DNA of 64,000 bases from a virus. Made by a program: the position numbers and the translations under genes. The first letter of the stretch is position 1; each line of letters starts with the position of its first letter. The stretch lies in the UHGV virus genome UHGV-0326994; one strand, written 5' to 3'. Positions 26,589-57,397 of the stretch are shown here, in pieces. The notes beneath the pieces are model-generated. The model saw nothing but the letters and a program-made list of their open reading frames with translations, had not been told where the DNA came from and did not search any database.

Positions 26589-26593
26589 AAATT

Positions 26594-26672: not shown

Positions 26673-26674
26673 AT

Positions 26675-26750: not shown

Positions 26751-26758
26751 TTAAATCT

Positions 26759-27555: not shown

Positions 27556-27573
27556 AAACCCCTCTTACTTGTC

Positions 27574-27649: not shown

Positions 27650-27757
27650 TTACCTACGAGAACACCATACAGTTTTTCACAAACTTTGTTTTTACGTCTG
27701 TTTAGGTATGACGCTCTAAACTTTTTTGCGATGGACTTATTACTCATAGTGCTCTCC

Positions 27758-27835
27758 TAAAAAATTGGTGTTCCAAGACGGATTCGAACCGTCACTAGTA
27801 CAAGGTTTGAGCTTGCATCCTCTGCCAATTGGGAT
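27758..27835 (-). tRNA. tRNA with Leu anticodon CAA, class-I length
   Basis: 78 nt; D-arm TCC CAATTGGCAGA GGA; anticodon stem-loop GCAAG CTCAAAC CTTGT; discriminator A; CCA encoded; only ~6 nt variable loop. Confidence 0.55.
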
Positions 27836-27836
27836 A

Positions 27837-27911
27837 CTGGAACATGGTACTCACTAAAGGACTTGAACCTTTTTCTTCATCTTGTAAGGGTGGTGTTTTA
27901 CCATATAAACT
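27837..27911 (-). tRNA. tRNA-like gene, possible anticodon UAC (Val), weak anticodon stem
   Basis: Good acceptor (ACTCGCT/AGTGAGT), T-arm and CCA, but the anticodon stem pairs at only 3 of 5 positions. Confidence 0.4.
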
Positions 27912-28007
27912 AAGCGAGTGTGAAAGAGGTCTGAAGTTGTGCCACTAACTCAACTCCGTGGAATTTGTTACGGTCTTCAGTTGACTCAAAGTGGTCTTTC
28001 ACTTGAC

Positions 28008-28083
28008 CTCTGAATTGGTGCTCCCACAAGGATTCGAACCCTGATAAGTTGCTTACAAGGCAACCGTAATAGCCAATTATACG
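28008..28083 (-). tRNA. tRNA-Thr (anticodon UGU)
   Basis: Anticodon stem-loop GTTGC CTTGTAA GCAAC; CCA encoded. Confidence 0.7.
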
Positions 28084-28090
28084 ATAGGAG

Positions 28091-28165
28091 CATTAATTTG
28101 GAGCATCCAGAGGGAATCGAACCCTCAACCTCAGTTTGGAAGACTGTAATTTTCCCGTTTAAACT
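28091..28165 (-). tRNA. tRNA-Gly (anticodon UCC)
   Basis: Acceptor GCATCCA/TGGATGC; anticodon loop CTTCCAA; CCA encoded. Confidence 0.7.
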
Positions 28166-28171
28166 ATGGAT

Positions 28172-28247
28172 GCACTAATTGGTGGAGTCACTGAGAATTG
28201 AACTCAGTTCCCAAGTTTGCAAAACTCGAATTTTAACCATATAAACT
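28172..28247 (-). tRNA. tRNA-Ala (anticodon UGC)
   Basis: Acceptor GGGGTCA with G3-U70 pair typical of tRNA-Ala; anticodon loop TTTGCAA; CCA encoded. Confidence 0.7.
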
Positions 28248-28253
28248 ATGACC

Positions 28254-34828: not shown

Positions 34829-36207
34829 TTAAAGCAAAGACTTACCCAGACTTCAAAGAGTTCGTAAAGGGTTTCGTTGCAAATGTAAAGGCTGGTAAGA
34901 GGTATGATTTTAGAACATATCAAGAGGCTATTTTGCCACTTACTTATAGTTCGTATTGGCCTGAAGCTGATATTGCAGAAGTTGAGAAGTTTGACTACAA
35001 ACCAGACTACAAAGTCCCATTTAGAGATGATTTGCTTTACAGCATCGGTGCTCAAATGAGAACTTCTGATTTCTTCATGGATTTGCAATACGCAATTATC
35101 AATGGTAAAGACGTTGATACTGTTTATTGTGAATGGCTGGCAAGAGTTAAACCATTCTCAATGTTAAATGCTAAGCTGAAAGATGCCATTAAACCACCAG
35201 CAATCACTCAGCAACCAACAAATCAAACAGTCAATGAGGGTGGTAAACTTACCCTTAGTGTTGTTGCATCTAATGCCACTGGCTATCAGTGGAAGAAGGA
35301 TGGTGAGGACATCTCCAGTGCCACCTCTGCAACTTACACAAAACAGTCAGTGGTTCCTTCTGATGCTGGTTCATACACTTGTGTTGTATCTGGAGAGGGT
35401 GGAACAAGTGTCACATCAGATGCAGCAACAGTTACTGTGAATGCCTTACCAGTGATTACTAAGCAACCTTCTAACCAGACTATCAATGAAGGTGGAAACA
35501 TCAGCTTAGCAGTTACTGCAACAGGTGCAACTGGTTACCAGTGGAAGAAAGATGGTTCTGACATCCCTTCAGCTACAAAGGCCACATATAGCAAATCTGG
35601 TGCACTTCCAGCAGATGCTGGTTCCTATACTTGCGTTGTAACAGGTGCTGGAGGTTCTGTCACTTCTAACCCTGCAACCGTTACTGTAAAAGCTTTACCA
35701 GTTATCACTCAACAGCCAACTGCAAAAACGGTTAACGAGGGTGGTACGCTAACCCTTAATATCGCTGCAACTGGTGCAACAGGCTACCAGTGGAGCAAAG
35801 ATAACGTAAATATTGAGGGAGCAAAATCTGCAACCTTTACCAAAGCTAGTGTAACACCTGCTGATGCTGGGTCTTACAAATGTACGGTAACTGGCGCAGG
35901 TGGAAATGTAGTCTCTAACGCTGCTGTAGTCACTGTTAATGCGCTTCCTGTAATCACTCAACAACCAGCCAATCAGGAAATCACTGAAGGTGAGACCTTA
36001 ACTCTGAATGTTGTGGCAACAGGTGCAACAGGTTATCAGTGGAAGAAGGGTGGCACGAACATTCCTAGTGCAACTGCTGCAACTTACACCAAAGAGAGTG
36101 CAACCACTGATGATGCAGGAAGCTACACTTGTGTAGTTACTGGCGCAGGTGGCTCTGTAACATCTAGTGCGGCAACAGTTACAGTTAACCCAGCAGGGGA
36201 GGCATAA
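34825..36207 (+). CDS. protein with N-terminal domain plus five tandem Ig-like (BIg-type) repeats
   Basis: 460 aa; five ~80 aa repeats of pattern ITQQPxNQTxNEGGxLTL...TGATGYQWKKDG...AGSYTCVVTGAGGSVTS...TVTVNALPV. Confidence 0.6.
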   Translation: MIKAKTYPDFKEFVKGFVANVKAGKRYDFRTYQEAILPLTYSSYWPEADIAEVEKFDYKPDYKVPFRDDLLYSIGAQMRTSDFFMDLQYAIINGKDVDTVYCEWLARVKPFSMLNAKLKDAIKPPAITQQPTNQTVNEGGKLTLSVVASNATGYQWKKDGEDISSATSATYTKQSVVPSDAGSYTCVVSGEGGTSVTSDAATVTVNALPVITKQPSNQTINEGGNISLAVTATGATGYQWKKDGSDIPSATKATYSKSGALPADAGSYTCVVTGAGGSVTSNPATVTVKALPVITQQPTAKTVNEGGTLTLNIAATGATGYQWSKDNVNIEGAKSATFTKASVTPADAGSYKCTVTGAGGNVVSNAAVVTVNALPVITQQPANQEITEGETLTLNVVATGATGYQWKKGGTNIPSATAATYTKESATTDDAGSYTCVVTGAGGSVTSSAATVTVNPAGEA

Positions 36208-40948: not shown

Positions 40949-41282
40949 AATTTTATCGGTTGTCCCAACCTCTGGGTCACCATCATATGTGAACAAAATA
41001 TCTACCCTTCTTAACAACCTTCTTAATCTTACTCTCTATATAGTTATATAGTACTATATAGTATCTTAGTATCTATCTAGTGGTCTTAATAGCCATCTGT
41101 ATAACCCTTCTAACTAGCCCTCTAAACACTCTTCTAACAAGCCTTCTTAACAACCTATACAATCACCTTAACCACCTCTCTATACCCTCTTAGAAGCTCC
41201 TATACACCTCTTAATCTCTATGTCAGCTATGATACCCTCTATAGGTGTTCACTAGGTATTACTAAGCCTCTATATAGACTGT

Positions 41283-41790
41283 TTTAACAAACTTAACAGG
41301 AATATCTTTACAGACCTTATCTCACAAGGTCTAACACGGTACTAACAAGGTATCTTATAAGCCTGTTTCCACCTGTATTTTTAAAAGACTGTCTAGGTAA
41401 TTATTCAGAATTTTAAAATTTTTATAAAATAGGACTATCAAGTCATTTTTTAGGGTCTTTGAAGGAACTGAAAAATATCTGTAGAAGATGTATATCTGCT
41501 TGGTAGCCCTTAACATCCCTGTAACATCCCCTTTGCAGAATTTTAAAATATCCTTAACAATCTCTTAACAGCTCTTACACCTTCTTAACATCTCTTCAGA
41601 GGTCTTAACAGTTTCTTAACAGGACTAACAAGGGTGTAACAAGTTCTTAACAAGTGCTGAATAGTCTTTACAGAGGCTTAACAGATGACTAACAAGAGCT
41701 AACAAGTTAATTTTTAAGAGTTATTTTGTTAAGAAAATTAACAAGTTCCTAACAAGTGTTTAATCTTTTTAACAAGCTATTAACATGGTC
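41283..41790. repeat. iteron-like array of TAACA(A/G) direct repeats
   Basis: About 19 copies of (C)TTAACA(G/A) or CTAACAAG, densest in 41550-41790 at roughly 11-20 bp spacing. Confidence 0.6.
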
Positions 41791-41979
41791 ACTATCTCTT
41801 TCTTATCGTTCCCTTCCCCTTCTCAGTGATTCTCTAAACATACCTCTTAAAAGCTCTCTATAGCTCTTTATAAGCCCTTTTAAGCCTCTTCCTAGTATCT
41901 ACACCCCAACTGTACAGATACCTTTTTATAGAGCTTTACAGGAGCTTTAAAGGCTATGTCAAAGACTCTTACAAGGCTT

Positions 41980-42090
41980 TTACGTGGTCTTAACAGAGAT
42001 TTAACAAGGGGCTAACAAGTTGCTAACAAGTGCCTTGAAAGAATAACTATGTAGGGATTGTTAAGAAATTGTTAAGAAAATGTTAAGGGG
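41980..42090. repeat. second iteron cluster with inverted copies
   Basis: tcttaacag, tttaacaagg, ctaacaagtt, ctaacaagtg followed by inverted ttgttaag x2 and atgttaag. Confidence 0.6.
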
Positions 42091-42504
42091 GCTAGCATTT
42101 ACGTAACTTTTAAGCTACTTCAAAGTAACTTTATAGCCCCTATAACATACTTTTTAGTGACTATCAAGGGGATTGTTTAACTATTCACAAGATACTAACG
42201 AGATAATAAAGCTTATAACCTTATAAGATTCTTTTAAGCCTCTATAAAGCCCTGTAAAGAGCTTTTTAGGGTGAGTTAATGCAATCCCTTAAGTTAGGTT
42301 GATAAGGCTGTTATAGCGCTTTATAGAGCGTTTAAGGGATTGGTAACAATACCAATTAGTGGGCCATCCCCTTTCTGGGGTTATTGGCTTGTATTTAAGT
42401 TGATTTGATAAAAGGCTATAGAGTAGACTATAGAGTTATTGCTTTTAAGGTCTGATAAGATTCTGAAAAGGTGAGGAAAGGGATTGTATAAGGATTGGAT
42501 AGAT

Positions 42505-42558
42505 GTAAAAAAGCCCCTGTGAGGGGCTGTATAAAGGTATCTGGGGCTAAATAGCCCC
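42505..42558 (-). terminator. tandem GC hairpins, terminator at the end of the small-gene island
   Basis: agcccct-gtg-aggggct with TTTTTT on the minus strand, plus ggggct-aaat-agcccc. Confidence 0.65.
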
Positions 42559-42568
42559 GTTGCGTCGA

Positions 42569-42817
42569 TTAGTTGCAACCTTGCTTATTGTAGTACAGGG
42601 AGACAATCAAATCACCCCAATAATGGTAATGATACTCATCGTTCAACGCCTCTTTTACTGCATCTTTCCAGAAGTCATCAGTGGGGTTATAGTCTGGGAT
42701 AACTTGCTTGATAACTGTCTTCACTAATGAAAAGCATTCATCAGTTCCACCAATATCAAATTTAACGTCCAGAGTGTAGCAGCCATAAGAATTTACAATT
42801 GCGCGGATAGTTGCCAT
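42569..42817 (-). CDS. small-gene island protein 1
   Basis: 82 aa; preceded by type-A cassette and GGAGATTCTAAAATG. Confidence 0.45.
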   Translation of the reverse strand: MATIRAIVNSYGCYTLDVKFDIGGTDECFSLVKTVIKQVIPDYNPTDDFWKDAVKEALNDEYHYHYWGDLIVSLYYNKQGCN

Positions 42818-42883
42818 TTTAGAATCTCCAGTTTAGGATTTTATTTAGTGGGGAAGGTCATTCCCTCCCCGTTGATTAGTAAT
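42818..42883 (-). repeat. intergenic cassette, type A
   Basis: gccattttagaatctccagtttaggattttatttagtggggaaggtcattccctccccgttgat. Confidence 0.7.
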
Positions 42884-43147
42884 TTACTGCATATTGGCGT
42901 ATGTTGCAAGCCTTTTTTCGTTGTATTTTGTCAGAATCTCACAAGATAAAACATCATATTTTGTAACTGCTTTACCTTTGTCGAGGTCAAAGAATCCGAA
43001 CGCTTTACCGTCTTTGAATCCGACAACTTCGTAAGATTCTTTAACGATTTCACCATTGAACAAATCGCTTTCGATGCGGTGAAACAGTGCTACGTCTTCT
43101 TTGTCAGTTGCAATTTGTAAAAGTGTGGTCAGTTCGACGTGTTCCAT
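42884..43147 (-). CDS. small-gene island protein 2
   Basis: 87 aa; preceded by type-A cassette. Confidence 0.45.
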   Translation of the reverse strand: MEHVELTTLLQIATDKEDVALFHRIESDLFNGEIVKESYEVVGFKDGKAFGFFDLDKGKAVTKYDVLSCEILTKYNEKRLATYANMQ

Positions 43148-43212
43148 TTCGAATCTCCAGTTTAGGATTTTATTTAGTGGGGAAGGTCATTCCCTCCCCG
43201 TTGATTGACAAT
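43148..43212 (-). repeat. intergenic cassette, type A
   Basis: Near-identical copy of the 42818 cassette. Confidence 0.7.
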
Positions 43213-43743
43213 TTACAGATTTTTGATTGTCTCGTCAATATCTTTTTCAATATCTTTTAAAGTTTTTTCTAAGTTCTTGATATTGAACGTTAAACCTTCA
43301 CCGAGAGTCTTAGAGTAACCGCTAGGGCGTAAATCATGCAGCTTGATTTCTTCCACATTAGATAAGTTTACCATCTCACCATTTGCAGCATAGGCTATAG
43401 ATACAGTGTTTTCAGGCGCGTTGTAAAATTTGTTCAAGGACTTGATAGAACGTTCATAAGCCATTTTATAACCGTTTAAAAGGCTTTTAACGTGGTTGTG
43501 AACGTTTTTACACTCATCCAAGTAAATTTCTAAGAATAACGGTAATAATTCCGCGACAGCTTGCATAAAGTGAGAGACTACAACGGTTGCAACATTACGA
43601 CGATGAACGTAATAAGCCCCTTTTTCTGATTTGGTAATGGTTGCGAAATGTACACCATTACAACGAAATTCATAGGTATCTTTAACAGGCTTTGACATTA
43701 CAGCATTTGAACGAATGAAGTTGATAGCTTGAAATTTGTTCAT
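43213..43743 (-). CDS. small-gene island protein 3
   Basis: 176 aa; preceded by type-A cassette variant. Confidence 0.45.
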   Translation of the reverse strand: MNKFQAINFIRSNAVMSKPVKDTYEFRCNGVHFATITKSEKGAYYVHRRNVATVVVSHFMQAVAELLPLFLEIYLDECKNVHNHVKSLLNGYKMAYERSIKSLNKFYNAPENTVSIAYAANGEMVNLSNVEEIKLHDLRPSGYSKTLGEGLTFNIKNLEKTLKDIEKDIDETIKNL

Positions 43744-43830
43744 TTTAGAATCTCCAGTTTAGGACTTTATTTAGTGGGGAGGTTATTGCCTTCCCGTTGA
43801 TTAGTAATTTACTTGTTTTGATAGTCGATT
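43744..43830 (-). repeat. intergenic cassette, type A variant
   Basis: Same framework; hairpin variant ggggaggttattgccttccc. Confidence 0.65.
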
Positions 43831-43963
43831 GCAAGTAATTTTTTGAGCTTATCTATAAAGAATCTTTTAAGTTAATCCCTTTTAGATAAACCCCCTCGAA
43901 CAAATGTACTATTGTCAAGGGGTATCGTCAAGTGATTTTTTAAAGTTTTTTGTAAGTTATTGA

Positions 43964-44305
43964 TTAACTGATGAATATTTTTTCAGGCTTTACATAGCTG
44001 ATACGCTGACTTTTTAGCAGGTCATTCCAGATTAGCGCGGCAATATGAGAATAGCCGGATTCACGTAAAAGTTTCATTGTTTTACTTCTCGTCTCAAAGC
44101 GGCTTGCGTAGTATTCACTGTTCAAGGTTGTTTTGTTCCCTTCGTTATCTGTATGGATGATTTGCATCACTTGAAAGGGGCTTACATCCTCACCTTTATT
44201 CCACTGCTCAAAGTATTTTAGGCACTGCATAGGCGATATCTTATCACTTACTTGAGTTGACCAAGATGAACCCTCTTTATCAGTAATTACAGTTACATAA
44301 GCCAT
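43964..44305 (-). CDS. small-gene island protein 4
   Basis: 113 aa; preceded by type-A cassette. Confidence 0.45.
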   Translation of the reverse strand: MAYVTVITDKEGSSWSTQVSDKISPMQCLKYFEQWNKGEDVSPFQVMQIIHTDNEGNKTTLNSEYYASRFETRSKTMKLLRESGYSHIAALIWNDLLKSQRISYVKPEKIFIS

Positions 44306-44394
44306 TTTAGAATCTCCAGTTTAGGACTTTATTTAGTGGGGAAGGTCATTCCCTCCCCGTTGATTGACAATTTACAGATTTTTATCAGGATTGT
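44306..44394 (-). repeat. intergenic cassette, type A
   Basis: Near-identical to the 43148 copy. Confidence 0.7.
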
Positions 44395-44628
44395 CTAGTC
44401 TTTTTCAATGATAATTTCATACTGACCATCTACGCTGTCAAAATAGACACCATCTTCATCTTCTGTCTTGAAGTAGCATTGTATGTCATCACTGGCGGGG
44501 TAGTCTTGTCTTGCTATCTGACAGACCTGAACGGCATTTTCTTTACTCCCCGTAAACTCCTCAAGCCCTTTAAAATCACATGAATGACCATTACAAATAG
44601 AAAGGATAAGATAAACGGTTGTAAGCAT
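44395..44628 (-). CDS. small Cys-containing protein with hydrophobic N-terminus
   Basis: 77 aa; MLTTVYLILSICNGHSC N-terminus; no cassette upstream. Confidence 0.35.
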   Translation of the reverse strand: MLTTVYLILSICNGHSCDFKGLEEFTGSKENAVQVCQIARQDYPASDDIQCYFKTEDEDGVYFDSVDGQYEIIIEKD

Positions 44629-44694
44629 GATTTAAGCCTCTTAAAAGCCCCTGTGAGGGGCTAATCAGTGTTTATAAGGTAATTGCATAGGTTT

Positions 44695-45237
44695 TTAGAA
44701 AAAACTCTTTAAATCCTCTTCTGCGATGTTTCCCGTTAGTGTGTCCATGATGTCACAAAAAACCTGAATACTGTCCGACTGTTGAACACTTTTAGCAAGT
44801 AGTTCTAATGTCTCATCAAGATAGTTCATATTTTGGTTATCCAGTGAAGGAAGACAAAAAGGTGAATACATAGCGTTAAACTCTGTTGTATAGACCTTTT
44901 TAATCCAGTTTACATCAAAGTACTCTGTAAAACTCGCTACACTCGACATATTATCACAAGAATAATCATCATTTAGCTCATCCTCTGGAATATCGAGTTC
45001 TAAGATAACAATATTTTGAGTCTTCATCTGAAAAGCTGCGGTGATAGTGGCATTGCCTAGAGCTTGCTGGATACCTTCAGAGATTATTTCTTCCTCATCA
45101 TCGCCATAGATTTTATTTTCTGGATACACGTAAAAATTGCCGTCCATATCCGAACAATTCCATGCGCCTGATGGTTTATCACCGTTATTAATAAGGTTGA
45201 GGAAATTTTCTTGAGTAGTACCGTGAAAACATTTCAT
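44695..45237 (-). CDS. small-gene island protein 5 (acidic)
   Basis: 180 aa; preceded by type-B cassette. Confidence 0.45.
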   Translation of the reverse strand: MKCFHGTTQENFLNLINNGDKPSGAWNCSDMDGNFYVYPENKIYGDDEEEIISEGIQQALGNATITAAFQMKTQNIVILELDIPEDELNDDYSCDNMSSVASFTEYFDVNWIKKVYTTEFNAMYSPFCLPSLDNQNMNYLDETLELLAKSVQQSDSIQVFCDIMDTLTGNIAEEDLKSFF

Positions 45238-45324
45238 TTTAGAATCTCCTAGTTTAAGGATTGAGTGGTAAAGCTCTTTATCTGGGGCTTACTTTATCGA
45301 ACTATAAGCCCCCTGTAAAGTACT
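45238..45324 (-). repeat. intergenic cassette, type B
   Basis: tagaatctcctagtttaaggattgagtggtaaagctctttatctggggcttactttatcgaactataagccccctgtaaagtacttta. Confidence 0.7.
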
Positions 45325-45573
45325 TTATTTAACTTTCTTTGAGAAAATTAGTTTAACTGCAACCGTAGGAATCTCGTCAGCGCTTGTAACTAGCATTACT
45401 TTTTGAGTAACCAACTTATAACCGTTCTTTGCAGCGTATGCGGTAAAACGGTTAACGTTGTAACTATAAGTTTTTGGTGTGCTATCTGGCATGTGGTAAA
45501 GAAAAGGTTTACCCAAATTTTCTTCTTGTGTCAACAGTCGGCAGGTATCAGGTATATTGAAATAGTTCATCAT
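45325..45573 (-). CDS. small-gene island protein 6
   Basis: 82 aa; preceded by type-B cassette. Confidence 0.45.
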   Translation of the reverse strand: MMNYFNIPDTCRLLTQEENLGKPFLYHMPDSTPKTYSYNVNRFTAYAAKNGYKLVTQKVMLVTSADEIPTVAVKLIFSKKVK

Positions 45574-45667
45574 TTTTGAATCTCCTAGTTTAAGGATTGA
45601 GTGGTAAAGCTCTTTATCTGGGGCTTAAGATATCAACTTTTAAGCCCCCTGTAAAGTACTTTATCAG
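45574..45667 (-). repeat. intergenic cassette, type B
   Basis: Type-B copy with loop variant cttaagatatcaacttttaagcccc. Confidence 0.7.
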
Positions 45668-45865
45668 TTATTTTTTGACAACTTTTAAAACTGCAAGATA
45701 ACCTAAGCAATAAGAATCACCGAAGAGAGTTCTCCCCATGAAAGAATCCTCTTTGATATCCTTTGCAGTGACAGTTTTTTCTACGCCGTGGGAAAGGACT
45801 ACATCACCAACTTTGATGTCTTTGATGTGTGTTGTTTCAATGGTTAAGCCGTTAATAATAGCCAT
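45668..45865 (-). CDS. small-gene island protein 7
   Basis: 65 aa; preceded by type-A cassette. Confidence 0.4.
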   Translation of the reverse strand: MAIINGLTIETTHIKDIKVGDVVLSHGVEKTVTAKDIKEDSFMGRTLFGDSYCLGYLAVLKVVKK

Positions 45866-45967
45866 TTTAGAATCTCCTAGTTTAAGGACTTTATTTAGTG
45901 GGGAAGGTCATTCCCTCCCCGTTGATGTGCAATTTAGCCTATCTAAAAATCAGTGTCAATAATTTTT
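45866..45967 (-). repeat. intergenic cassette, type A
   Basis: Type-A copy with extended tail ...gttgatgtgcaatttagcctatctaaaaatcagtgtcaat. Confidence 0.7.
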
Positions 45968-46372
45968 TTAGAGTTCTGCGTAAATTGCATCGCAGATATT
46001 ACGGAAGTCATGATTTGACAAATTACGTTGTAACCAAGTGGCGAAGAAATCAGCGATTGCAAAATTAGCATCATACTCGACAGATAACCACACTTTAACA
46101 GCAAATCGGAACATTTTCAAGTCTAACTCTTTATTCATTACCTTAGATTTGCCTAACATGTCGGACATCTCATATTGTGCACCGTCTAGCGTGATACCTG
46201 CTGCAACGTCAGACAATGAGTTTTTTACGTTTTCAACGTCTAAGATAACACTTTGAATCTTCCCGATAATGTTGTGCAATGTTTCATCCGGTGCTGATGA
46301 TGTGATAACATTAATCCGGTTAACGGTCAAACGTGCTTTTAAAATTGATAACTCACGGTTATTAATAGCCAT
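45968..46372 (-). CDS. small-gene island protein 8
   Basis: Start moved to the ATG (MAINN...); the MENLKM extension in the ORF track starts at a TTG inside the cassette. Confidence 0.45.
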   Translation of the reverse strand: MAINNRELSILKARLTVNRINVITSSAPDETLHNIIGKIQSVILDVENVKNSLSDVAAGITLDGAQYEMSDMLGKSKVMNKELDLKMFRFAVKVWLSVEYDANFAIADFFATWLQRNLSNHDFRNICDAIYAEL

Positions 46373-46458
46373 TTTTAAGTTCTCCAATTTAGGATTGAGT
46401 GGTAAAGTTCTTTATCTGGGGCTTACTTTATCGAACTATAAGCCCCTTGTAAAGTACT
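46373..46458 (-). repeat. intergenic cassette, type B (ACTTAAAAATGGC start variant)
   Basis: gccatttttaagttctccaatttaggattgagtggtaaagttctttatctggggcttactttatcgaactataagcccc. Confidence 0.7.
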
Positions 46459-46731
46459 TTATACTAAATGCAGCTTTTTACCTTTTACTATGATGTAACT
46501 AGATGCGCTATTGCTGCATACATCTTGGTAAATTCTGCGCAAACGTCCTTCATAGTGTACTTTCCAACTGGTTGGAATCTTTTTCCCGTATCCTGTAGCA
46601 GTTTTTTGGAGTCCTGCAACTTGCCAATTTAAGATGTGTTGCTCAGCCCGTAAATCTTCAAAGCACATCACACCATCTACATAGTGACGCAAGGTGACAT
46701 TTAAGGTGCGACCGTTGTTAGTAGTATACAT
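46459..46731 (-). CDS. small-gene island protein 9
   Basis: 90 aa; preceded by type-A cassette. Confidence 0.45.
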   Translation of the reverse strand: MYTTNNGRTLNVTLRHYVDGVMCFEDLRAEQHILNWQVAGLQKTATGYGKKIPTSWKVHYEGRLRRIYQDVCSNSASSYIIVKGKKLHLV

Positions 46732-46822
46732 TTTCAGAATCTCCTAGTTTAAGGACTTTATTTAGTGGGGAAGGTCATTCCCTCCCCGTTGATGTGTAAT
46801 TTAACCCATCTAAAAATCAGTG
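46732..46822 (-). repeat. intergenic cassette, type A
   Basis: Near-identical to the 45866 copy, including the ctaaaaatcagtgtcaa tail. Confidence 0.7.
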
Positions 46823-47155
46823 TCAACAGTTATGTTTTCGTTTGCTCAATTCTTGAACAATTACAGCATAGTAGTCTTTTAAGTCACTGATATTTAAAGC
46901 ATTTATCAGAGAATTATAATCATCCACCAACTGAAAATCATCTTTGAAGATGTCACTTATCTGATAGGTTTTCGCTTTATATCTGAAGCTCATCTCTAGC
47001 CGCTTTATTTGCTCATCGCTTAAACGCTCCAGAAAGCTCCCTACAAGGTTATTGCTAACCTGTTGTGTGATTGCCTTATTTGCTAGATTATAGGCTTTAT
47101 ATGCCTTATAGAGCGCGAAAATGGCAATGATTGCAGTGATACCAGTCATTAACAT
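46823..47155 (-). CDS. small membrane protein
   Basis: 110 aa; N-terminal TM ITAIIAIFALYKAY; overlaps upstream gene stop. Confidence 0.4.
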   Translation of the reverse strand: MLMTGITAIIAIFALYKAYKAYNLANKAITQQVSNNLVGSFLERLSDEQIKRLEMSFRYKAKTYQISDIFKDDFQLVDDYNSLINALNISDLKDYYAVIVQELSKRKHNC

Positions 47156-47445
47156 GGTGTTTCCTCTTTACGTGATACTTTACCATTTACAGTTATCTCA
47201 TAGGATTCTAATAAATCGCTTTTAGACTTTACAGGACTTTTAAAAGTATCATCATAGATATTAACTTGCAATACAGGTTTTTTATATTCCCTGCAACTAT
47301 TCCATAAGCAAATCACTACACGACGGCCTTTTATTTTGCCGTGTAACCATTCCATAACATCATGACTATTCCTTGATGTTTCAATGAAATCAATTTTGTT
47401 AAGTAGCTTGCTTAGATTTTCCCTAACTTTATTTGATAATTTCAT
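47149..47445 (-). CDS. small-gene island protein 10
   Basis: 98 aa; preceded by type-B cassette variant. Confidence 0.4.
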   Translation of the reverse strand: MKLSNKVRENLSKLLNKIDFIETSRNSHDVMEWLHGKIKGRRVVICLWNSCREYKKPVLQVNIYDDTFKSPVKSKSDLLESYEITVNGKVSRKEETPC

Positions 47446-47537
47446 TTTTGAGTCTCCTAGTTTAAGGGCTTTATTTGATAAATCTCTTTATCTGGGGCTA
47501 TCCTACCAGCTTGATAACCCCGTGTAAAGAAATCTAT
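47446..47537 (-). repeat. intergenic cassette, type B variant
   Basis: catttttgagtctcctagtttaagggctttatttgataaatctctttatctggggcta... Confidence 0.6.
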
Positions 47538-48050
47538 TTAGTTCTTAAAGATATTCATCACTGAATCTTTCAACGATTCCAAACGTTCTAATACTTCAGT
47601 TTCTGCGTCTGAATTGCTCACCTCTTCTTTTAGTCTATCCTCTAAATCATCACCGTCACGATAGCACCAATCGAAAGCATAACCAAGATAAAAACTTTCT
47701 AAAACCGTGTTACCGTTTGCATCCACAACTTTCGCGGCAAGGTTGTACTCTGAAGCCTCTAAATCTCTTTCGAGTTCTTTCTGTAAGCTGGTGTAAGCCT
47801 CTTTTGATGGATTTTCCCGACCTTGTTTTGCATAGTCACTTGAAAGCTGTTTCAGGCTGTAATGTAAAGGGATTGCATATTTAAATCCATTACGCTGATA
47901 AATAGGATTTTTAACAGTAACACCGCCTTGATGGTTGTCTGTAAATTCCCAATTATCAAGGTTATGGCTTGCTTCGTAGCAATTAACAGCTTCGTAAATG
48001 ATGGAAAATTTTTCTTTTACAACTTCAAAGGTAGCGTCTACAGTTTTCAT
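47538..48050 (-). CDS. small-gene island protein 11 (acidic)
   Basis: 170 aa; preceded by type-B cassette. Confidence 0.45.
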   Translation of the reverse strand: MKTVDATFEVVKEKFSIIYEAVNCYEASHNLDNWEFTDNHQGGVTVKNPIYQRNGFKYAIPLHYSLKQLSSDYAKQGRENPSKEAYTSLQKELERDLEASEYNLAAKVVDANGNTVLESFYLGYAFDWCYRDGDDLEDRLKEEVSNSDAETEVLERLESLKDSVMNIFKN

Positions 48051-48135
48051 TTTTGAATCTCCAGTTTAGGATTTAGTGGTAAAGCTCTTTATCTGGGGCT
48101 TAAGATATCAACTTTTAAGCCCCTTGTAAAGTACT
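48051..48135 (-). repeat. intergenic cassette, type B
   Basis: catttttgaatctccagtttaggatttagtggtaaagctctttatctggggcttaagatatcaacttttaagcccc. Confidence 0.7.
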
Positions 48136-48429
48136 TTATTTGTTAATTTTCAGCTTTGCATAACCTCTCATTGTACGGATGGGCGATGTTAAGGCCATGC
48201 GTCTGATATATGCCTTTTTCGTGTATACGCTTGTCTTCCCGATAGTGTTTACACATGTAAAAAGGTTTACCGGTGAATTTTTTAACTTCAACTGCTTATC
48301 AGCCTTCACGCCCCACCTTACAGCGGATTGTTTCCCGTTGTCAATCACTTTCCCGCATAACTTTTTAGCTATGTTGCGAGCGTCATCACGAGTCTTTGCA
48401 GTAATTACAACGTTTTTGATAATAGCCAT
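48136..48429 (-). CDS. small-gene island protein 12 (basic)
   Basis: Start moved to the ATG (MAII...); the ORF-track start is a TTG inside the cassette. Confidence 0.45.
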   Translation of the reverse strand: MAIIKNVVITAKTRDDARNIAKKLCGKVIDNGKQSAVRWGVKADKQLKLKNSPVNLFTCVNTIGKTSVYTKKAYIRRMALTSPIRTMRGYAKLKINK

Positions 48430-48515
48430 TTTTAAGTTCTCCAATTTAGGATTGAGTGGTAAAGCTCTTTATCTGGGGCTTACTTTATCGAACTATAAGC
48501 CCCTTGTAAAGTACT
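48430..48515 (-). repeat. intergenic cassette, type B
   Basis: Near-identical to the 46373 copy. Confidence 0.7.
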
Positions 48516-48896
48516 TTATTTAATTTTGAAAATTGTTACATAACCATCACTACCGATTATTTGAGACACTCCAGCTTTTTCTACTTGATAGCCCATATTT
48601 TCAAGATGATAAACAGCATCATCATAACCATATGCGCCGCCTTGATAACGTCTCTTATCGCATCTTACTAATACCTTTCCACGTCCAGCAAGTGCATTCA
48701 GTACAGCTTTTTCACTTGAGAGTGTGCCATCTAACATGGTTGCCGTGTAATGGTTGATTCTATTCCCGTTTACATCATACTTAAAATTGTATGCGTGAAC
48801 AACAATAACGTTGCCTTTGAAATTTTCATCAAGTGACTTCTCCAGTACTTTGCGAAAGTTGTCTTTGTTGATGAATTTCGGTGCACGATAAGCCAT
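48516..48896 (-). CDS. small-gene island protein 13
   Basis: 126 aa; preceded by type-B cassette. Confidence 0.45.
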   Translation of the reverse strand: MAYRAPKFINKDNFRKVLEKSLDENFKGNVIVVHAYNFKYDVNGNRINHYTATMLDGTLSSEKAVLNALAGRGKVLVRCDKRRYQGGAYGYDDAVYHLENMGYQVEKAGVSQIIGSDGYVTIFKIK

Positions 48897-48985
48897 TTTT
48901 GAATCTCCTAGTTTAAGGTTAGTTAGTAAAGCTCTTTATCTGGGGCTTACTTTATCGAACTATAAGCCCCTTGTAAAGTACTTTA
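48897..48985 (-). repeat. intergenic cassette, type B
   Basis: gccatttttgaatctcctagtttaaggttagttagtaaagctctttatctggggcttactttatcgaactataagcccc. Confidence 0.7.
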
Positions 48986-49192
48986 TTAGATATTGTAGTA
49001 ATAAACTGCTGTCTGTCTTATGTACTTTCTTGTATTTCTTGTAAGGTAGCAATTAGAGTTTATAGCTGTTTCTACATAGTTGCAATAGTCAGCTTCTGAT
49101 ATTCTGGACCATACGTCACAGATTTTCATGTAAAAACGTTTTACCTTTGTGTTAACGTTAGTTGTAACCATCAATTCGCGACTGTACAGCAT
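48986..49192 (-). CDS. small-gene island protein 14
   Basis: 68 aa; preceded by degenerate cassette. Confidence 0.35.
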   Translation of the reverse strand: MLYSRELMVTTNVNTKVKRFYMKICDVWSRISEADYCNYVETAINSNCYLTRNTRKYIRQTAVYYYNI

Positions 49193-49260
49193 TTTTAGAT
49201 TCTCCAGTTTAGGAAGTGGGCTTGATTGCCCGTCTGATGCAAATATTAGATAACCATACT
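49193..49260 (-). repeat. degenerate cassette copy
   Basis: catttttagattctccagtttaggaagtgggcttgattgcccgtctgatgc; 5' part conserved, hairpin replaced. Confidence 0.5.
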
Positions 49261-49419
49261 CAAAGAGTCAATAGGAATTTTAAAAATATTTTTGGCAAAA
49301 ATGTAATGAAACGGGTGCGCGCGAATACCACAAAACAGAACACAAATCAAGAATTATTTTCCAATCCGCTACAAATTTTTCTGTTGACTTTTCTTTTCGG
49401 ATGTGGTAGCCTTGTGAGA

Positions 49420-49640
49420 AATGGCGACATTCCCACCTGCACCCACCTACCTGCACAATTCTAAAATGATTTTTCTTGCCCGACCTGAGCGGGGTCTGCA
49501 CGTTTTGAAAATAAAAAAGCTCTTTGGAGATTATCTGCACAGTTTGAAAATGAATTTTCTCTTTGGAGTTCAAAATTTTCTCTACAGATTTCTCTAGAGA
49601 AATACACCTGCACAATCCTGAAATAAAAAAGCCCTCCTTA
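49420..49640. repeat. three direct repeats CTGCACA(A/G)T(T/C)(C/T)TGAAAATGA-like
   Basis: cacctacctgcacaattctaaaatga, ttatctgcacagtttgaaaatga, acacctgcacaatcctgaaataaaaaag. Confidence 0.5.
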
Positions 49641-49699
49641 CCTGAAAAATTTACCAGATAAGAAAGGCTTAGTCTATTGTGAATATCCTACAGAGTTTC

Positions 49700-50485
49700 T
49701 TAGTTCTTTGCGTCTAAGAAGGTAACTTCCGGTGAAGAGAAAATTTCCTCAACATCCTCATCAGTTCTTGCATAGATATATGTATCTGCATCACTGCCAA
49801 ATGTTACTGCAATCCTGTGATTGTTCTTTGACAGGTGGGTAACTAGAGCGTTACTTAGAGACATCTTTTCAACCGGAGGGTTACTTTGATGTATCTTGCC
49901 TTTTCTTCGTCTGAAGAGGGTAACTGCATCATTAGTGAACACTACTACACCTGCAAAGTATTCTGGTTCACAGTAGTTCTTCCAACCTGAGCGTAACTTG
50001 TGGTACATCTCTCCTTCGTAGACATACAGATACACATCTACACTCTTCATCACCTGATTGATAATAACTGTGACAGCTTGAGGGTCAAGTCCACCGATTC
50101 CTGCGCCAATCATAGGTAAACCAACTTTCTTTAACTGGTTCACTTCACAGTATCTGTTGAGCTGGTTCAAAGATGACTCTAAAGCACTGTATCGGGCATC
50201 TTTACCAGTCTTAAGCTGAGTGTAAAGGTTAGCTATACGACCTTGTTTTAAACGTGCTACAGAGAAATTACCTAGCAAATTTTCACAGGGTTTGTGGCCT
50301 ATACCACCTGCATACAGATAAACTTCTGTATCAGTCTCATATGCTTTTGGGTAAAGTTTAGAAATCTTGTCAGCGATACCTGCACCCATTAAGTTCATAC
50401 AGTTGCAACCGTGACCGATGACGTCAAACTTACCTTTATCAAATGCTGCAAAGATATCACCATTGATGATTTTTACAATACCCAT
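49700..50485 (-). CDS. macro-domain protein (ADP-ribose binding/processing) with C-terminal extension
   Basis: 261 aa; N-terminal IINGDIF...VIGHGCNCMNLMGAGIADKI...GLPMIGAGIGGLDP resembles the macro-domain core; C-terminal ~90 aa of unknown fold. Confidence 0.6.
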   Translation of the reverse strand: MGIVKIINGDIFAAFDKGKFDVIGHGCNCMNLMGAGIADKISKLYPKAYETDTEVYLYAGGIGHKPCENLLGNFSVARLKQGRIANLYTQLKTGKDARYSALESSLNQLNRYCEVNQLKKVGLPMIGAGIGGLDPQAVTVIINQVMKSVDVYLYVYEGEMYHKLRSGWKNYCEPEYFAGVVVFTNDAVTLFRRRKGKIHQSNPPVEKMSLSNALVTHLSKNNHRIAVTFGSDADTYIYARTDEDVEEIFSSPEVTFLDAKN

Positions 50486-54951: not shown

Positions 54952-55000
54952 CTTATTACTCTCTCTTGTCAGTTAATAAATCATTTTGTGAGGCTATTCT

Positions 55001-55020
55001 AAGGGGCTTCAAAGCCCCTT
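55001..55020 (-). terminator. GC hairpin between rIIA and rIIB (weak terminator or attenuator)
   Basis: aaggggct-tcaa-agcccctt; no clear U-run. Confidence 0.35.
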
Positions 55021-55030
55021 GTCAAACATT

Positions 55031-57397
55031 TTAATCGTAAATTGTAGTCCCTTCTGGAACACACTTCACATCAAAGCCTAAGAACTTACTCACTTCGATA
55101 GGTGACACTTTATTCCAATCTAAATGAGAAAGCAAGAAGTTTTCTTGTTTTCTTTTTGAAAGATAGTTTGTCACCTTAATGACCATACGGTCACCAGCTT
55201 TCTTAATTTTCTTGTACAGCTTTGTGTCGTTGTCAAGGCATTCTTTCAAAGTTTGCAATCTACTAACAGTGTAAGTGTATGCAAACGGTGCAGCAACGTA
55301 TTGGATTTTACCGAACATTGCCTCTACAGCCTCTTCATTACCTTCTAGGAAGATAGTTTTGTTTGTATCCCGTGAATAGCAATAACCACGAGAAATCTTC
55401 CTGTTATTGAATGTAAAGTTTCTGGCAATAATCCAGCTACTTGTAAGGTCAAGAACACCATTCATGTAGATGCGTGTCATATACCTGTTATGATTAATCC
55501 AATGAACATCAGTTAAGCTGTCGTTCAAGAGCTTCTCATCTACTTCAATCCAGTCTTCTGGTATCTTTTTCCAATTTGCTTTTCGGAAAACATAGACTGT
55601 CTTTCCAATAACATTTGCAACTGACTTAGCTACATCTTCTGGAGATGAGCAAAAACACTCACCATCAACTGTGTCACCAACTGCCTTAATGTAAAGCTGA
55701 GGTTCTTCAATTGTGTCTAAGTCTTCTGATACCTCTTTGTAGGAGGCTACACCTTCTGCTGGGACAGCTTTCCAGAGTTTTACAACACCTCTTACAGCTT
55801 CTTTACGCTGGTAATGGTGTTCCTTATCAGACATTTTCACAATCTTTAACAAGCTTTTATCAAGTCTGTGCAGATTGATTAAGTCATCTAACTCTTTTTC
55901 AGTAGAGAATACAAAGACAATACCATTGTATCTGTGAAACAGACCTGACTCACTGGCATAGTCTCGACATGCACCACGCAAGATTTGGTTGCGTCCTACA
56001 GTCTTCTCAGTACCATTTTTATTGCGACGGTCATTAATAACAAACAAAAACTGTTCAATTTGGCTTTTACGCATTGCGCCAAAGATATTGAACATACTTG
56101 CCTCTTGAGTGTAGGAAAGTGCTGTTGCACGAATCTTACTCTCTAAAGAGTTGAACTTGACATAAGCAACCGGATTGTACAGGAAGTCAACTTTAGGGAT
56201 ATTGTTTCCTTTGCTGTCAACCTTAATATTGCCTTTACCATCACGTTCATAAATAACTGAGCCGTCTTCTGCGTAAATAATCCCCCGACGAATGTTTAGT
56301 AATTCTTCTTCCAGAGACTCAAGTTTAACACCACCCCACTCTAGCTTTGGACACACAGCATTAAACATCTCTCGTGAGTTCAAACGTAACTCAGCATAAG
56401 CCTGTGCAGCGTCCATGAGTGTAGGTTGATTATTAACCCCCTTAATAACATCCCTTGTAATCGCTTCAGTTATCTTTTTAGTAGCCTCAATGATAACATT
56501 TTTTGTCGTATCATTCATCTGCAATGCTTCACGAGAAGCTGCAATAGCAACTGAACCAATAGGCATGTAAATGTTTACAAGGTCTACACTCCTACGGAAA
56601 AATTCTGGCAAGACTTTGAAGAAATCATCTCCAAGTAGCGCTTCCATGTTAACTGGATAGGCAATATTACCCATCACCACATTAAACTCTGTCCTGTTAC
56701 CACTAGAACGCCAGCTTTGCTTATGAATCATGGCATCATAGACACCCTCTTCACGGGCAATGACGTTCATATCTGCTAATACATCGTCGTACACAATATT
56801 ACTTTCTGGTTTTACAGCAAAGTATGAGTATACATTACCAGCTTCTTCAAAGAACTTTGAGATACGATGGTCAGCAACTGCTACACGTACAGCTAAACCA
56901 TTAGGCTCTTTTGTTGGGTTAGTGGTTAGCTTGGTTACTTGAGGAATACCATTCTCAAGATAAACAGAGTATTTATTAACAACACCATCAACGTAGCTCG
57001 ATACTGTGAATGACTGAGCAATTGCAAACGGTGACTTTGAACCGATACCCATTGCACCAATGTAGTCATTAGAGTCATTCTTTGTAGAAGCCCCGTAGTT
57101 TAGATACAAACTCATAACTTTATCATGAGTCAATCCAGTTCCAAAATCACGAACTTCAAAGTAAGGCTCAAAACGAGTAGGCAAATGCACATGGAATGGG
57201 ATGTTCTCTTTTCCAGCTTCTTTCTGAGCATCTACTGCGTTACATGACAGTTCACGAATAACTGCCCTTTCTTTAAATGTATATACACCAGAACTCAAAA
57301 GGCTGAACATTTCAGGTGTCATTGTAATCTGTGCTTGAGACGTCTCTAAAGAAGTTGAACTTTTAATCACTTCTGCGTGGTCGTTTACCATGCGCAT
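55031..57397 (-). CDS. rIIA: rIIA-like protein (GHKL ATPase-like N-terminus)
   Basis: 788 aa; N-terminal RELSCNAVDA...DFGTGL...GAMGIGSKS ATPase-lid motifs as in rIIA. Confidence 0.7.
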   Translation of the reverse strand: MRMVNDHAEVIKSSTSLETSQAQITMTPEMFSLLSSGVYTFKERAVIRELSCNAVDAQKEAGKENIPFHVHLPTRFEPYFEVRDFGTGLTHDKVMSLYLNYGASTKNDSNDYIGAMGIGSKSPFAIAQSFTVSSYVDGVVNKYSVYLENGIPQVTKLTTNPTKEPNGLAVRVAVADHRISKFFEEAGNVYSYFAVKPESNIVYDDVLADMNVIAREEGVYDAMIHKQSWRSSGNRTEFNVVMGNIAYPVNMEALLGDDFFKVLPEFFRRSVDLVNIYMPIGSVAIAASREALQMNDTTKNVIIEATKKITEAITRDVIKGVNNQPTLMDAAQAYAELRLNSREMFNAVCPKLEWGGVKLESLEEELLNIRRGIIYAEDGSVIYERDGKGNIKVDSKGNNIPKVDFLYNPVAYVKFNSLESKIRATALSYTQEASMFNIFGAMRKSQIEQFLFVINDRRNKNGTEKTVGRNQILRGACRDYASESGLFHRYNGIVFVFSTEKELDDLINLHRLDKSLLKIVKMSDKEHHYQRKEAVRGVVKLWKAVPAEGVASYKEVSEDLDTIEEPQLYIKAVGDTVDGECFCSSPEDVAKSVANVIGKTVYVFRKANWKKIPEDWIEVDEKLLNDSLTDVHWINHNRYMTRIYMNGVLDLTSSWIIARNFTFNNRKISRGYCYSRDTNKTIFLEGNEEAVEAMFGKIQYVAAPFAYTYTVSRLQTLKECLDNDTKLYKKIKKAGDRMVIKVTNYLSKRKQENFLLSHLDWNKVSPIEVSKFLGFDVKCVPEGTTIYD

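Follow-up and report, generated by a model that had tools for sequence, protein, structure and literature searches.

An island of small genes preceded by a repeated cassette

UHGV-0326994 is a virus genome of which a stretch of 64,000 nucleotides, hereafter the window, was analysed. It belongs to a Felixounavirus, that is, a Felix O1-like myovirus of the subfamily Ounavirinae, and contains an island of small genes, most of them preceded by a copy of a repeated cassette, which is the subject of this work. A megablast search with positions 42000-50000 matched 260 phage records, nearly all from Felix O1-like myoviruses (Ounavirinae, Felixounavirus), and the closest match was Escherichia phage vB_EcoM_ULIM3 (91.6% identity, 96% query cover). 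The island runs on the minus strand from 49271 to 42506, and its 16 small open reading frames (ORFs) of 65-180 amino acids, here named g01 to g16 (Table 1), lie between 42569 and 49192. Its counterparts are ORF15-ORF23 in Felix O1 and gp98-gp111 in Bas63. The neighbours are a macro-domain 'phosphatase' gene (49700-50485, Pfam Macro) with its terminator on one side and a non-coding stretch of about 1.5 kb on the other. A consensus scan found intrinsic terminators only at the island borders, at 49670-49629 and 42528-42512, and the first of these insulates the island from the unit upstream.

Fourteen of the 16 genes are preceded by a cassette of about 95 nt. Type A stands before six of them (g07, g09, g13, g14, g15 and g16), type B before seven (g02, g03, g04, g05, g08, g10 and g11), and a variant before g01. 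Gene g12 has no cassette and possesses its own hairpin and ribosome site; g06, whose product has a hydrophobic segment at the N-terminus, has none either, and is probably translationally coupled to g05 because its start overlaps the end of that gene. A preliminary description, made from the sequence alone, had reported about 16 small minus-strand genes, 14 of them behind near-identical cassettes of about 90 bp in two variants, and the present counts agree with it. Over the 90 nt upstream of the genes, pairwise identity is 84% (79-96%) among type A copies and 87% (74-99%) among type B copies, against 56±4% (maximum 74%) in the upstream regions of 54 other genes of the window. The last 35 nt, comprising the 5′ untranslated region (UTR) and Shine-Dalgarno (SD) module, are 75% identical between the two types. 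When the 64-kb window and 49 kb of Bas63 were searched with a profile hidden Markov model (HMM), full-length copies (E<1e-14) were found solely inside the island.

A sigma-70-type promoter motif in every cassette

The cassette had been described as a hairpin, a conserved spacer and a start context. These parts are present and the motifs quoted for them are correct, with the type A hairpin given as the plus strand (on the gene strand it reads GGGGAGGGAATGACCTTCCCC), but that description missed a sigma-70-type −35/17-nt spacer (N17)/−10 arrangement, which is found at a fixed position in 14 of 14 cassettes. In type A, the order on the gene strand is TTGACA, TTGCAA, TAGACA or TTGACG, then 17 nt, TAAATT, 10 nt ending in ATCAAC, the hairpin and ACTAAATAAAGTCCTAAACTGGAGATTCTAAAATG. 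Type B begins with a stop in TAAAGTAC and continues with TTTACA, 17 nt that make up the 5′ arm and loop of the hairpin, a −10 hexamer of TAAAGT, TATCTT or TAGGAT, and AAGCCCCAGATAAAGAGCTTTACC, followed by GGAGA and ATG. The g01 variant has TTGACT, 17 nt, TAATAT and a different hairpin, and in relatives the same promoter bears the type A hairpin instead.

The stop of the upstream gene is built into the element: a TAA opens the type B repeat, and in type A the stop sits in the −35 or −10 hexamer. The A-tract and −35 of type A often lie within the 3′ coding end of the preceding gene, as is seen in g14, g15 and g12 (43210-43260, 42881-42930 and 44369-44420), and the C-termini of these three proteins (...EKDIDETIKNL, ...EKRLATYANMQ and ...IIIEKD) are therefore partly dictated by the cassette. 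Across the cassettes, GGAG is located 7-9 nt before the ATG, and an A is found 8 nt downstream of the −10 hexamer in 13 of 14 (a G at g05). If transcription begins at this base, the predicted start sites from g01 to g16 are 49235, 48941, 48474, 48094, 47492, 46790, 46417, 45923, 45619, 45283, 44361, 43798, 43202 and 42873. A generic consensus scan flagged 12 of the 14 promoters at the same positions. Translations beginning MENLKM from TTG codons at 48444 and 46387 had been considered artefacts, and rightly so, as a GGAG stands 9 nt before the ATG at both 48429 and 46372, and starts there also fit the lengths of the coding sequences annotated in relatives.

For comparison, islands from 19 relatives in four genera were collected, and their cassettes were located with nhmmer. 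The 63 unique type B copies from these genera all have CTTTACA and, 17 nt downstream, the T, A and T of TAnnnT; the three middle bases of the −10 and most of the apical loop vary, and a G at −14, conserved in at least 90%, makes a TGn extended −10. In 77 of 87 unique type A copies, TTGACA, TTGCAA, TAGACA, TTGACG or TTGACT is present at N17. Judged by these motifs, each cassette is probably an autonomous promoter.

Conservation of the hairpins at the RNA level

The type A hairpin starts 10 nt after the −10 in 82 of the 87 unique copies. A hairpin is retained in all 87 variants (−5 to −16.6 kcal/mol, mean −13.5), with stems that vary in the length of their G/C runs or are replaced outright. A leader peptide in type A was considered, in which GGAGG-GA-ATG in stem and loop would open an ORF of six codons (MTFPTK*), and was ruled out, as the ATG is ATA in many variants, and SD and ATG lie 2 nt apart, hidden within the stem.

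In type B the 5′ arm of the hairpin occupies the promoter spacer and the −10 lies in the loop and 3′ arm, giving about 20 bp with an internal loop. The extended structure consists of a lower stem of 6 bp and 5 bp with one mismatch between them, then a 3x3 internal loop, and an upper stem of 9 bp that carries a loop of 11 nt; its folds reach z-scores of −3.9 to −5.65. Over the 63 unique sequences, 96.4% of the positions expected to pair do so, compared with 31-55% when the partners are slid. Compensatory changes occur at four pairs (GC to UA, n=9 and n=7); for example, ESCO45 and Kolesnikvirus have GGTG/CACC in place of GGGG/CCCC. The type B stems are rich in G·U pairs, and selection on this hairpin appears to act on the sense-strand transcript, because the tolerated G·U pairs would be A·C mismatches on the complementary strand.

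None of the cassette hairpins is followed by a U-run, as the preliminary description had stated, so that the combination of G/C hairpin and U-run that defines an intrinsic (Rho-independent) terminator is absent from all cassettes. A scan of positions 41500-50000 against Rfam 15 returned a single match at chance level (mir-980, E 0.93) and no known RNA family.

Gain, loss and shuffling of units

A blastn search with the type B cassette matched 1371 places in 289 phage records, all of Ounavirinae-type phages, with hosts in Escherichia, Salmonella, Shigella, Citrobacter, Erwinia and Cronobacter. The array is kept in four genera of the subfamily, Felixounavirus, Suspvirus, Mooglevirus and Kolesnikvirus. 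The number of HMM-detected cassettes per island ranges from 7 (Felix O1) to 17 (Michonne) in the first three genera and is 4 in each of two Kolesnikvirus loci. Where the adjoining proteins have no more than 29-51% identity, the cassette DNA retains about 72-83%.

The gene maps show a syntenic backbone in which whole units come or go (g01, g02, g03, g05, g09-g12, g10, g15 and g16, and the further units x10, x16, x17 and x20). The unit x10 occupies another slot in Michonne, and the gene order in Kolesnikvirus, for which the homologies were checked, is g04, g07, g11, g05, g12, g14, g10. One and the same gene can stand behind either type of cassette. For g13 this is A in Felixounavirus but B in Michonne and phiSUSP1; for g10 it is B in the window and A in Michonne; and g02 occurs with B or A.

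Indel events were defined from the ends of BLAST blocks against 15 relatives. Both ends lie in a cassette, or in a terminal half-cassette at 42563-42536, in 13 of 17 distinct events. As cassettes make up 21-26% of the island, about one doubly cassette-bounded event would be expected by chance (P ~1e-12 to 1e-15). Typically, the stretch of the relative that two BLAST blocks share is exactly one cassette long. In LF82P5, a deletion of 3563 bp from g02 to g10 lies between two B cassettes and has left a single cassette, its right-hand junction being the g11 cassette. Felix O1 lacks g02-g03 (B/B), g09-g12 (A/A) and g15 (A/A), and in seven of the compared relatives g10 is missing, the two junctions each lying in a B cassette. 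The terminal half-cassette is the right-hand junction of the 3′-end deletions in Mushroom, MBP4696116 and SUT_S920, and in Mushroom an A promoter is fused directly to its hairpin. Crossovers between unlike cassettes fall in whichever sub-segment is common to them, the SD module in the loss of g01 and the insertion of x16, and CAACGGGG at the 3′ end of the island, which argues for a homology-driven rather than a site-specific exchange.

These differences by whole units, the junctions within cassettes and the reshuffled Kolesnikvirus order support the earlier suggestion of a plug-in array. Neither finding that would speak against it, cassette copies aligning no better than generic ribosome-site regions or a gene content invariant among relatives, was observed.

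Cassettes within one genome evolve in concert. Between genera, identity is 0.87-0.88 among the cassettes of a genome versus 0.72-0.83 at orthologous positions, and orthologous positions are no closer to each other than non-orthologous ones. All four ESCO45 copies have GGTG/CACC, and all Michonne and phiSUSP1 copies share a C-to-T change in the stem.

The Citrobacter phage Michonne also contains two tandem type B cassettes with no gene between them, beside the duplicated g03 (positions 6087-6260 of its extracted locus); the ATG of the first is fused straight to the CTTTACA of the second.

Gene products and expression

The 16 island proteins fall into 16 different PHROG families, each of unknown function and each with a sole member here. 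The absence of recognisable domains noted before holds at the level of Pfam: no curated cut-off was reached by any of the 16, and the sole match, of g06 to DUF3139, was below threshold. A tblastn search detected homologues of g11 in Vibrio phages and in PAK_P1-like phages of Pseudomonas; at the slot of g11 itself, SUT_S920 and CL1 (some Felixounavirus genomes) have an allele with 52% identity. Gene g14 is confined to the Ounavirinae. The g11 homologue in Bas63, gp107, was conditionally important on E. coli S17-1 (PhageMaP preprint) and is reported to show weak structural similarity to the NAD-binding domain of RNA 2′-phosphotransferase. A search of PDB sequences with g11, bearing on this reported Tpt1-like similarity, gave no meaningful match.

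The Felix O1 paper showed by reverse transcription PCR (RT-PCR) that island ORFs are transcribed, with ORF16, 20, 21 and 22 maximal at 5 min, and stated that neither an RNA polymerase nor a known specificity factor is encoded by the phage. It lists 'direct repeats' of 57 bp and 39 bp without interpreting them; these are parts of types B and A, respectively. A literature search on transcriptomics and promoter analyses of Felixounavirus and Ounavirinae found nothing relevant.

Proposed interpretation as promoter-early stem-loop modules

We consider it probable that the island is an early-gene hyperplastic region built of autonomous expression modules of the promoter-early stem-loop (PeSL) type. 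Such cassettes have so far been described only in T4-type phages, namely RB49/phi1, T4/PST and KVP40/nt-1 (Arbiol et al. 2010, PMC2839356; Comeau et al. 2014, PMC4122927), and promoter and terminator activity as well as mini-circles were demonstrated for RB49/phi1 (PMC2839356; PMC4122927). The order of parts is the same here: a stop in an A/T-rich stretch, a sigma-70-like −35/N17/−10, a stem-loop of a G-run and a C-run, the SD and the start. The stem-loop occupies the spacer, covers the −10 or follows it directly, and of the five positional subclasses of phi1 PeSLs two are matched by types A and B; the type B −35 TTTACA agrees with the T4/PST consensus TTTACW. As in those phages, the elements are clustered in a hyperplastic region before ORFans, and indels and replacements are associated with them. 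Promoter hexamers, stem-loop placement, stop and SD edges, a hyperplastic ORFan region and element-bounded indels are thus all seen here as sequence features. The differences are that the host genomes are Ounavirinae and not T4-like, that no sequence homology to PeSLs is detectable (blastn of the cassette matches Ounavirinae-type phages only), that only two discrete and highly uniform architectures occur and are kept over four genera, that the type B stem reaches about 20 bp with an internal loop, and that the 5′ UTR/SD module is itself conserved and common to both types. The cassettes appear to be an analogue of PeSL in a new lineage and not a homologue, because neither a T4-type genome nor sequence relatedness is found.

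On this interpretation, each unit would be a self-contained early module read by the host RNA polymerase, in which an upstream stop in an A/T-rich stretch is followed by a sigma-70-type promoter, a G/C stem-loop and a standardised 5′ UTR with GGAG. In type A, the mRNA is predicted to begin about 3 nt before the 8-bp hairpin. A hairpin close to the mRNA 5′ end is the geometry typical of 5′ stabilisers, of which the 5′-terminal hairpin of the ompA 5′ UTR is an example in bacterial mRNA. The stable type A hairpin would probably act in this way, and also as a structured barrier in read-through RNA; in the comparison with ompA, the function of type A is read from its geometry and its start site is a prediction. 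Transcripts initiated at type B would have as their first base the A that directly follows the upper stem, which would leave them devoid of the 5′ half of the hairpin, and only read-through RNA from upstream would fold the whole interrupted structure of about 20 bp. Because the full type B structure is under selection, we infer that there is read-through RNA and that it undergoes attenuation, cleavage or 3′-end protection; the complete hairpin would attenuate, process or 3′-stabilise the upstream message. The element would in this manner uncouple each gene from its upstream neighbour, which would make the unit portable. As DNA, the cassettes would be homology patches of about 95 bp at which units are deleted, inserted, swapped and homogenised by homologous recombination, of the phage or of the host. 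The clean deletions, insertions and allele swaps and the homogenisation are observed, and follow from the cassettes being long, near-identical direct repeats.

Several observations weigh against the PeSL interpretation. The type A copies of g14 and g16 match the consensus hexamers at only 8 of 12 positions. The type B −35 overlaps the paired helix, and its invariance could stem from the structure and not from use as a promoter. The covariation events are few and phylogenetically clustered, and the seven outer-stem GC-to-UA changes are orthologous copies of one cassette. As no U-run follows any cassette hairpin in the consensus scan, the 'terminator' half of the PeSL model is without support from sequence rules. 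In the Felix O1 RT-PCR, the cassette-bearing ORF17, 19 and 23 peak at 25 min. A literature search found no transcription-start, 3′-end or reporter data for Ounavirinae cassettes.

Alternative explanations

If the cassettes were purely RNA signals, a single long early transcript from the promoter at 49271 would be punctuated by RNase III, RNase E or protein-binding hairpins with a ribosome site, and the hexamers would be incidental. The preliminary description leaned this way, taking the hairpin for an RNase or protein-binding site more than for a terminator. Such a reading accounts for selection on the sense-strand RNA (G·U pairs, covariation), for the absence of U-runs and for the two canonical terminators that bracket the island like a single unit. 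RNase III processing hairpins are found between the early genes of T7; like the type B hairpins they are inter-cistronic, have no U-runs, lie in an early region read by the host polymerase and form two helices with an internal loop, and after cleavage the upstream mRNA would carry a hairpin at its 3′ end. The type B geometry, with its 11-bp lower stem (one mismatch), 3x3 loop and 9-bp upper stem, would be compatible with an RNase III site; the minimum-energy fold of T7 R1.1 was uninformative for comparison, and the idea draws on a general resemblance. T7 sites have no embedded sigma-70 promoter. Against a purely RNA-level signal, the type B loop is variable except for the T, A and T of the −10, which do not change and stand exactly 17 nt from an invariant TTTACA, with a conserved G at −14. 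Type A keeps a TTGACA-like hexamer at N17 even in the coding ends of unrelated genes, and the analogous T4-type elements are strong promoters by experiment. We therefore regard a purely RNA-level signal as unlikely. A combined view, which we hold only tentatively and think rather improbable, is that type B is bifunctional, a promoter in DNA and an RNase III-type hairpin in read-through RNA, and that, given the concerted evolution of cassettes, the island is a recombinase-free analogue of an integron in which small anti-host genes are tried out. The AGA of the internal loop (e.g. 48474-48472) would then coincide with the start site of the promoter itself, with initiation and processing giving identical 5′ UTRs and a 3′ hairpin being added to the upstream mRNA; if so, every gene would have the same expression at whatever site it is inserted. 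That the hairpins are ordinary intrinsic terminators between the genes, which is how several GenBank relatives annotate them, is very unlikely. WebGeSTer or TransTerm features do overlie type A hairpins in ASO1A and KhF1, and a PeSL stem-loop lowered downstream lacZ expression in RB49/phi1. But with no T-run behind any cassette hairpin, the scan finds terminators only at the island borders, the ASO1A record has type A copies annotated as 'promoter' and then immediately as 'terminator', directly before the ribosome site, and in the KhF1 record the terminators are on the opposite, non-coding strand.

The high identity within a genome would also be expected if the cassettes were passive leftovers of a recent tandem duplication of a promoter region, with no part in plasticity and no selection on the hairpin. 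This is largely refuted and highly improbable, as the array is kept over four genera whose island proteins are only 29-51% identical, the stems show compensatory changes, 13 of the 17 indels are cassette-bounded, and the flanked genes are mutually unrelated. Small, co-oriented, unrelated ORFs between structured repeats of about 60-100 nt, gained and lost as whole units, further recall integron cassettes, in which attC-type repeats are recombined by a dedicated site-specific recombinase; the PeSL authors made the same analogy, and circular intermediates, in the PeSL model, are a possible further likeness. Yet no integrase is annotated in flanks of 10-49 kb in 19 relatives (the ORFs of the window itself were scanned in part), the cassettes, as seen in the type B alignment, show no GTTRRRY/RYYYAAC core sites, the repeat is 5′ of the gene and gives each unit its own promoter motif and ribosome site, and crossovers fall in varied sub-segments (the whole cassette, the SD module only or CAACGGGG only), an exchange that looks homology-driven. 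An integron-like system is accordingly hardly credible. The morons of lambdoid phages are also single accessory genes with their own promoter and a downstream structure, but their flanks are neither conserved repeated linkers nor thought to drive mobility (Hendrix et al. 2000, as discussed in PMC2839356).

Implications

The PeSL authors noted that nothing yet showed cassette-mediated shuffling outside the T4-like phages (PMC2839356), and our literature search found no publication linking Ounavirinae cassettes to PeSL. The present findings would extend the concept to a second, unrelated subfamily of myoviruses, with cleaner evidence in the form of single-cassette junctions, concerted evolution and conservation across four genera. 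They generalise a mechanism of phage genome plasticity and overturn no expectation.

There are practical consequences, because Felix O1-like phages are widely used in the typing, biocontrol and therapy of Salmonella and E. coli. For annotation, where existing records label the cassette sites inconsistently as terminators, promoters or nothing, the cassettes identify, in each genome, the right start codons of about 14 genes as well as their probable early promoters. They predict deletion hot spots during phage production, of which the natural 3.6-kb loss in LF82P5 is an instance, and would offer natural landing pads with a standard expression context for engineering. The compact, fast-turnover and putatively early gene set is a source of candidates for host takeover and anti-defence functions, and the Bas63 gp107 homologue is already known to be conditionally important.

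Coordinates of the island and further features

Table 1. Features of the island, in the direction of reading. Genes are of unknown function; aa, amino acids; TSS, transcription start site; all TSS are predicted.
Feature	Positions	Strand	Details
Intrinsic terminator after macro-domain gene	49619..49670	-	17-bp stem and T-run; equivalent of Felix O1 terminator t13
g01 cassette (variant)	49190..49271	-	−35 TTGACT 49271-49266; N17; −10 TAATAT 49248-49243; hairpin GGGCAATCAAGCCC 49231-49218; SD 49205-49202; ATG 49192
g01	48986..49192	-	68 aa; phrog_5293; missing in ULIM3, LMP33, ECML-1, EcoM2 and Mushroom
g02 cassette (type B)	48894..48989	-	−35 TTTACA 48977-48972; −10 TAAAGT 48954-48949; extended hairpin 48986-48926; TSS ~48941; SD 48908-48905
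g02	48516..48896	-	126 aa; phrog_4495; missing in ASO1A, SWJM-02, Felix O1 and LF82P5
g03 cassette (type B)	48427..48522	-	−35 48510-48505; −10 TAAAGT 48487-48482; extended hairpin 48519-48459; TSS ~48474; SD 48442-48439; fold −24.3 kcal/mol, z −3.9; core z −5.65
g03	48136..48429	-	97 aa from ATG 48429 (not TTG 48444); phrog_5089; duplicated in Michonne; missing in Felix O1 and ESCO45
g04 cassette (type B)	48048..48141	-	−35 48130-48125; TG-extended −10 TATCTT 48107-48102; extended hairpin 48139-48079; TSS ~48094
g04	47538..48050	-	170 aa; phrog_4190; Felix O1 ORF16
g05 cassette (type B, sequence variant)	47443..47539	-	−35 47528-47523; TG-extended −10 TAGGAT 47505-47500
g05 cassette hairpin	47537-47478	-	13-bp lower stem, 3x3 internal loop, 9-bp upper stem; compensatory changes preserve pairing; −27.5 kcal/mol, z −4.4
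g05	47149..47445	-	98 aa; phrog_4401; relocated in Kolesnikvirus MM7
g06	46823..47155	-	110 aa; no cassette; start overlaps g05 end
g07 cassette (type A)	46729..46831	-	−35 TTGACA 46826-46821; −10 TAAATT 46803-46798; 10/12 consensus match; TSS ~46790; hairpin 46787-46767; SD 46744-46741
g07	46459..46731	-	90 aa; phrog_3436
g08 cassette (type B)	46370..46464	-	−35 46453-46448; −10 TAAAGT 46430-46425; hairpin 46462-46402; TSS ~46417
g08	45968..46372	-	134 aa from ATG 46372 (not TTG 46387); phrog_4327; Felix O1 ORF20
g09 cassette (type A)	45863..45966	-	−35 TTGACA 45959-45954; −10 TAAATT 45936-45931; TSS ~45923; hairpin 45920-45900
g09	45668..45865	-	65 aa; phrog_3623
g10 cassette (type B)	45571..45666	-	−35 45655-45650; TG-extended −10 TATCTT 45632-45627; hairpin 45664-45604
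g10	45325..45573	-	82 aa; phrog_9030
g11 cassette (type B)	45235..45331	-	−35 45319-45314; −10 TAAAGT 45296-45291; hairpin 45328-45268
g11	44695..45237	-	180 aa; phrog_3303; homologue of Bas63 gp107
Terminator-like hairpin between g11 and g12	44643..44663	-	AGCCCCTCACAGGGGCT and TTTT; read directly from the sequence
g12	44395..44628	-	77 aa; no cassette; phrog_4640
g13 cassette (type A)	44303..44404	-	−35 TAGACA 44397-44392 (holds g12 TAG stop); −10 44374-44369; hairpin 44358-44338
g13	43964..44305	-	113 aa; phrog_4318; Felix O1 ORF21
g14 cassette (type A, variant hairpin)	43741..43841	-	−35 TTGCAA 43834-43829; −10 43811-43806; hairpin GGGAAGGCAATAACCTCCCC 43795-43776
g14	43213..43743	-	176 aa; phrog_4725; Felix O1 ORF22
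g15 cassette (type A)	43145..43245	-	−35 TTGACG 43238-43233 within g14 coding end; g14 TAA stop is the first three bases of −10 TAAATT (43215-43210); hairpin 43199-43179
g15	42884..43147	-	87 aa; phrog_7022; missing in Felix O1, SWJM-02 and Bas63, with A/A junctions
g16 cassette (type A)	42815..42916	-	−35 TTGCAA 42909-42904 within g15 coding end; g15 stop within −10 (42886-42881); hairpin 42870-42850
g16	42569..42817	-	82 aa; phrog_4559
Terminal half-cassette	42536..42563	-	GCAACGGGGCTATTTAGCCCCAGATACC; type A-like left edge CAACGGGG, type B-like right edge GCCCCAGATA
Closing intrinsic terminator of the island	42506..42528	-	7-bp stem, six T; Felix O1 counterpart t23

The hairpin AGCCCCTCACAGGGGCT occurs twice with an identical stem, before g12 with four T and at the end of the island with six T. 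Gene g12 has no promoter motif of its own and would rely on read-through past the first copy. The spacer between g13 and g14 (43830-43964) is unusually long; within it are a further promoter-like site, TTGACG-N17-TACATT (43931-43903), and, overlapping a TTGACA, the hairpin CCCCTTGA...TCGAGGGG, and a tiny ORF is annotated there in some relatives. This element may be a degraded cassette or a small RNA.

A third instance of a PeSL-like element lies outside the island, in the intergenic region of rIIA and rIIB (54975-55033, minus strand), and reads TTGACA-aggggctttgaagcccct-TAGAAT. The first 16 nt of aggggctttgaagcccct form the hairpin GGGGCTTTGAAGCCCC, which nearly fills the 18-nt spacer. The element is also present in Bas63 (20744-20808 of the extracted sequence).

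In the 420-nt non-coding gap from the macro-domain gene terminator to the first island promoter, three to five copies of a repeat of about 19-35 nt, centred on (A/T)TGTGCAG(G/A)T, are found at 49440-49650, together with the small palindromes TTTCTCTACAGA/TCTCTAGAGAAA, and this segment may be a regulatory region for early transcription. Beyond the closing terminator, positions 41011-42075, within the non-coding stretch of about 1.5 kb, are dense in YTAACAR words (CTTAACA, CTAACAAG and their complement TTGTTAAG): 25 of the 82 matches in the window fall within these 1.07 kb, often 11 nt apart and in direct and inverted orientation. The linear records of several GenBank relatives open near this stretch. 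The array looks like an iteron or protein-binding array, perhaps of a replication origin, a packaging site or a partition site.

Two further repeat families were seen in the window. The coding region that contains four tandem repeats of about 250 nt (35197-36190) is annotated in relatives as encoding a protein with an immunoglobulin-like domain (Bas63 gp124). At 25390-31050, a large cluster of tRNA genes appears as a family of 30-nt repeats, made of T-arm and acceptor-stem segments, and such a cluster is typical of Felix O1-like phages.

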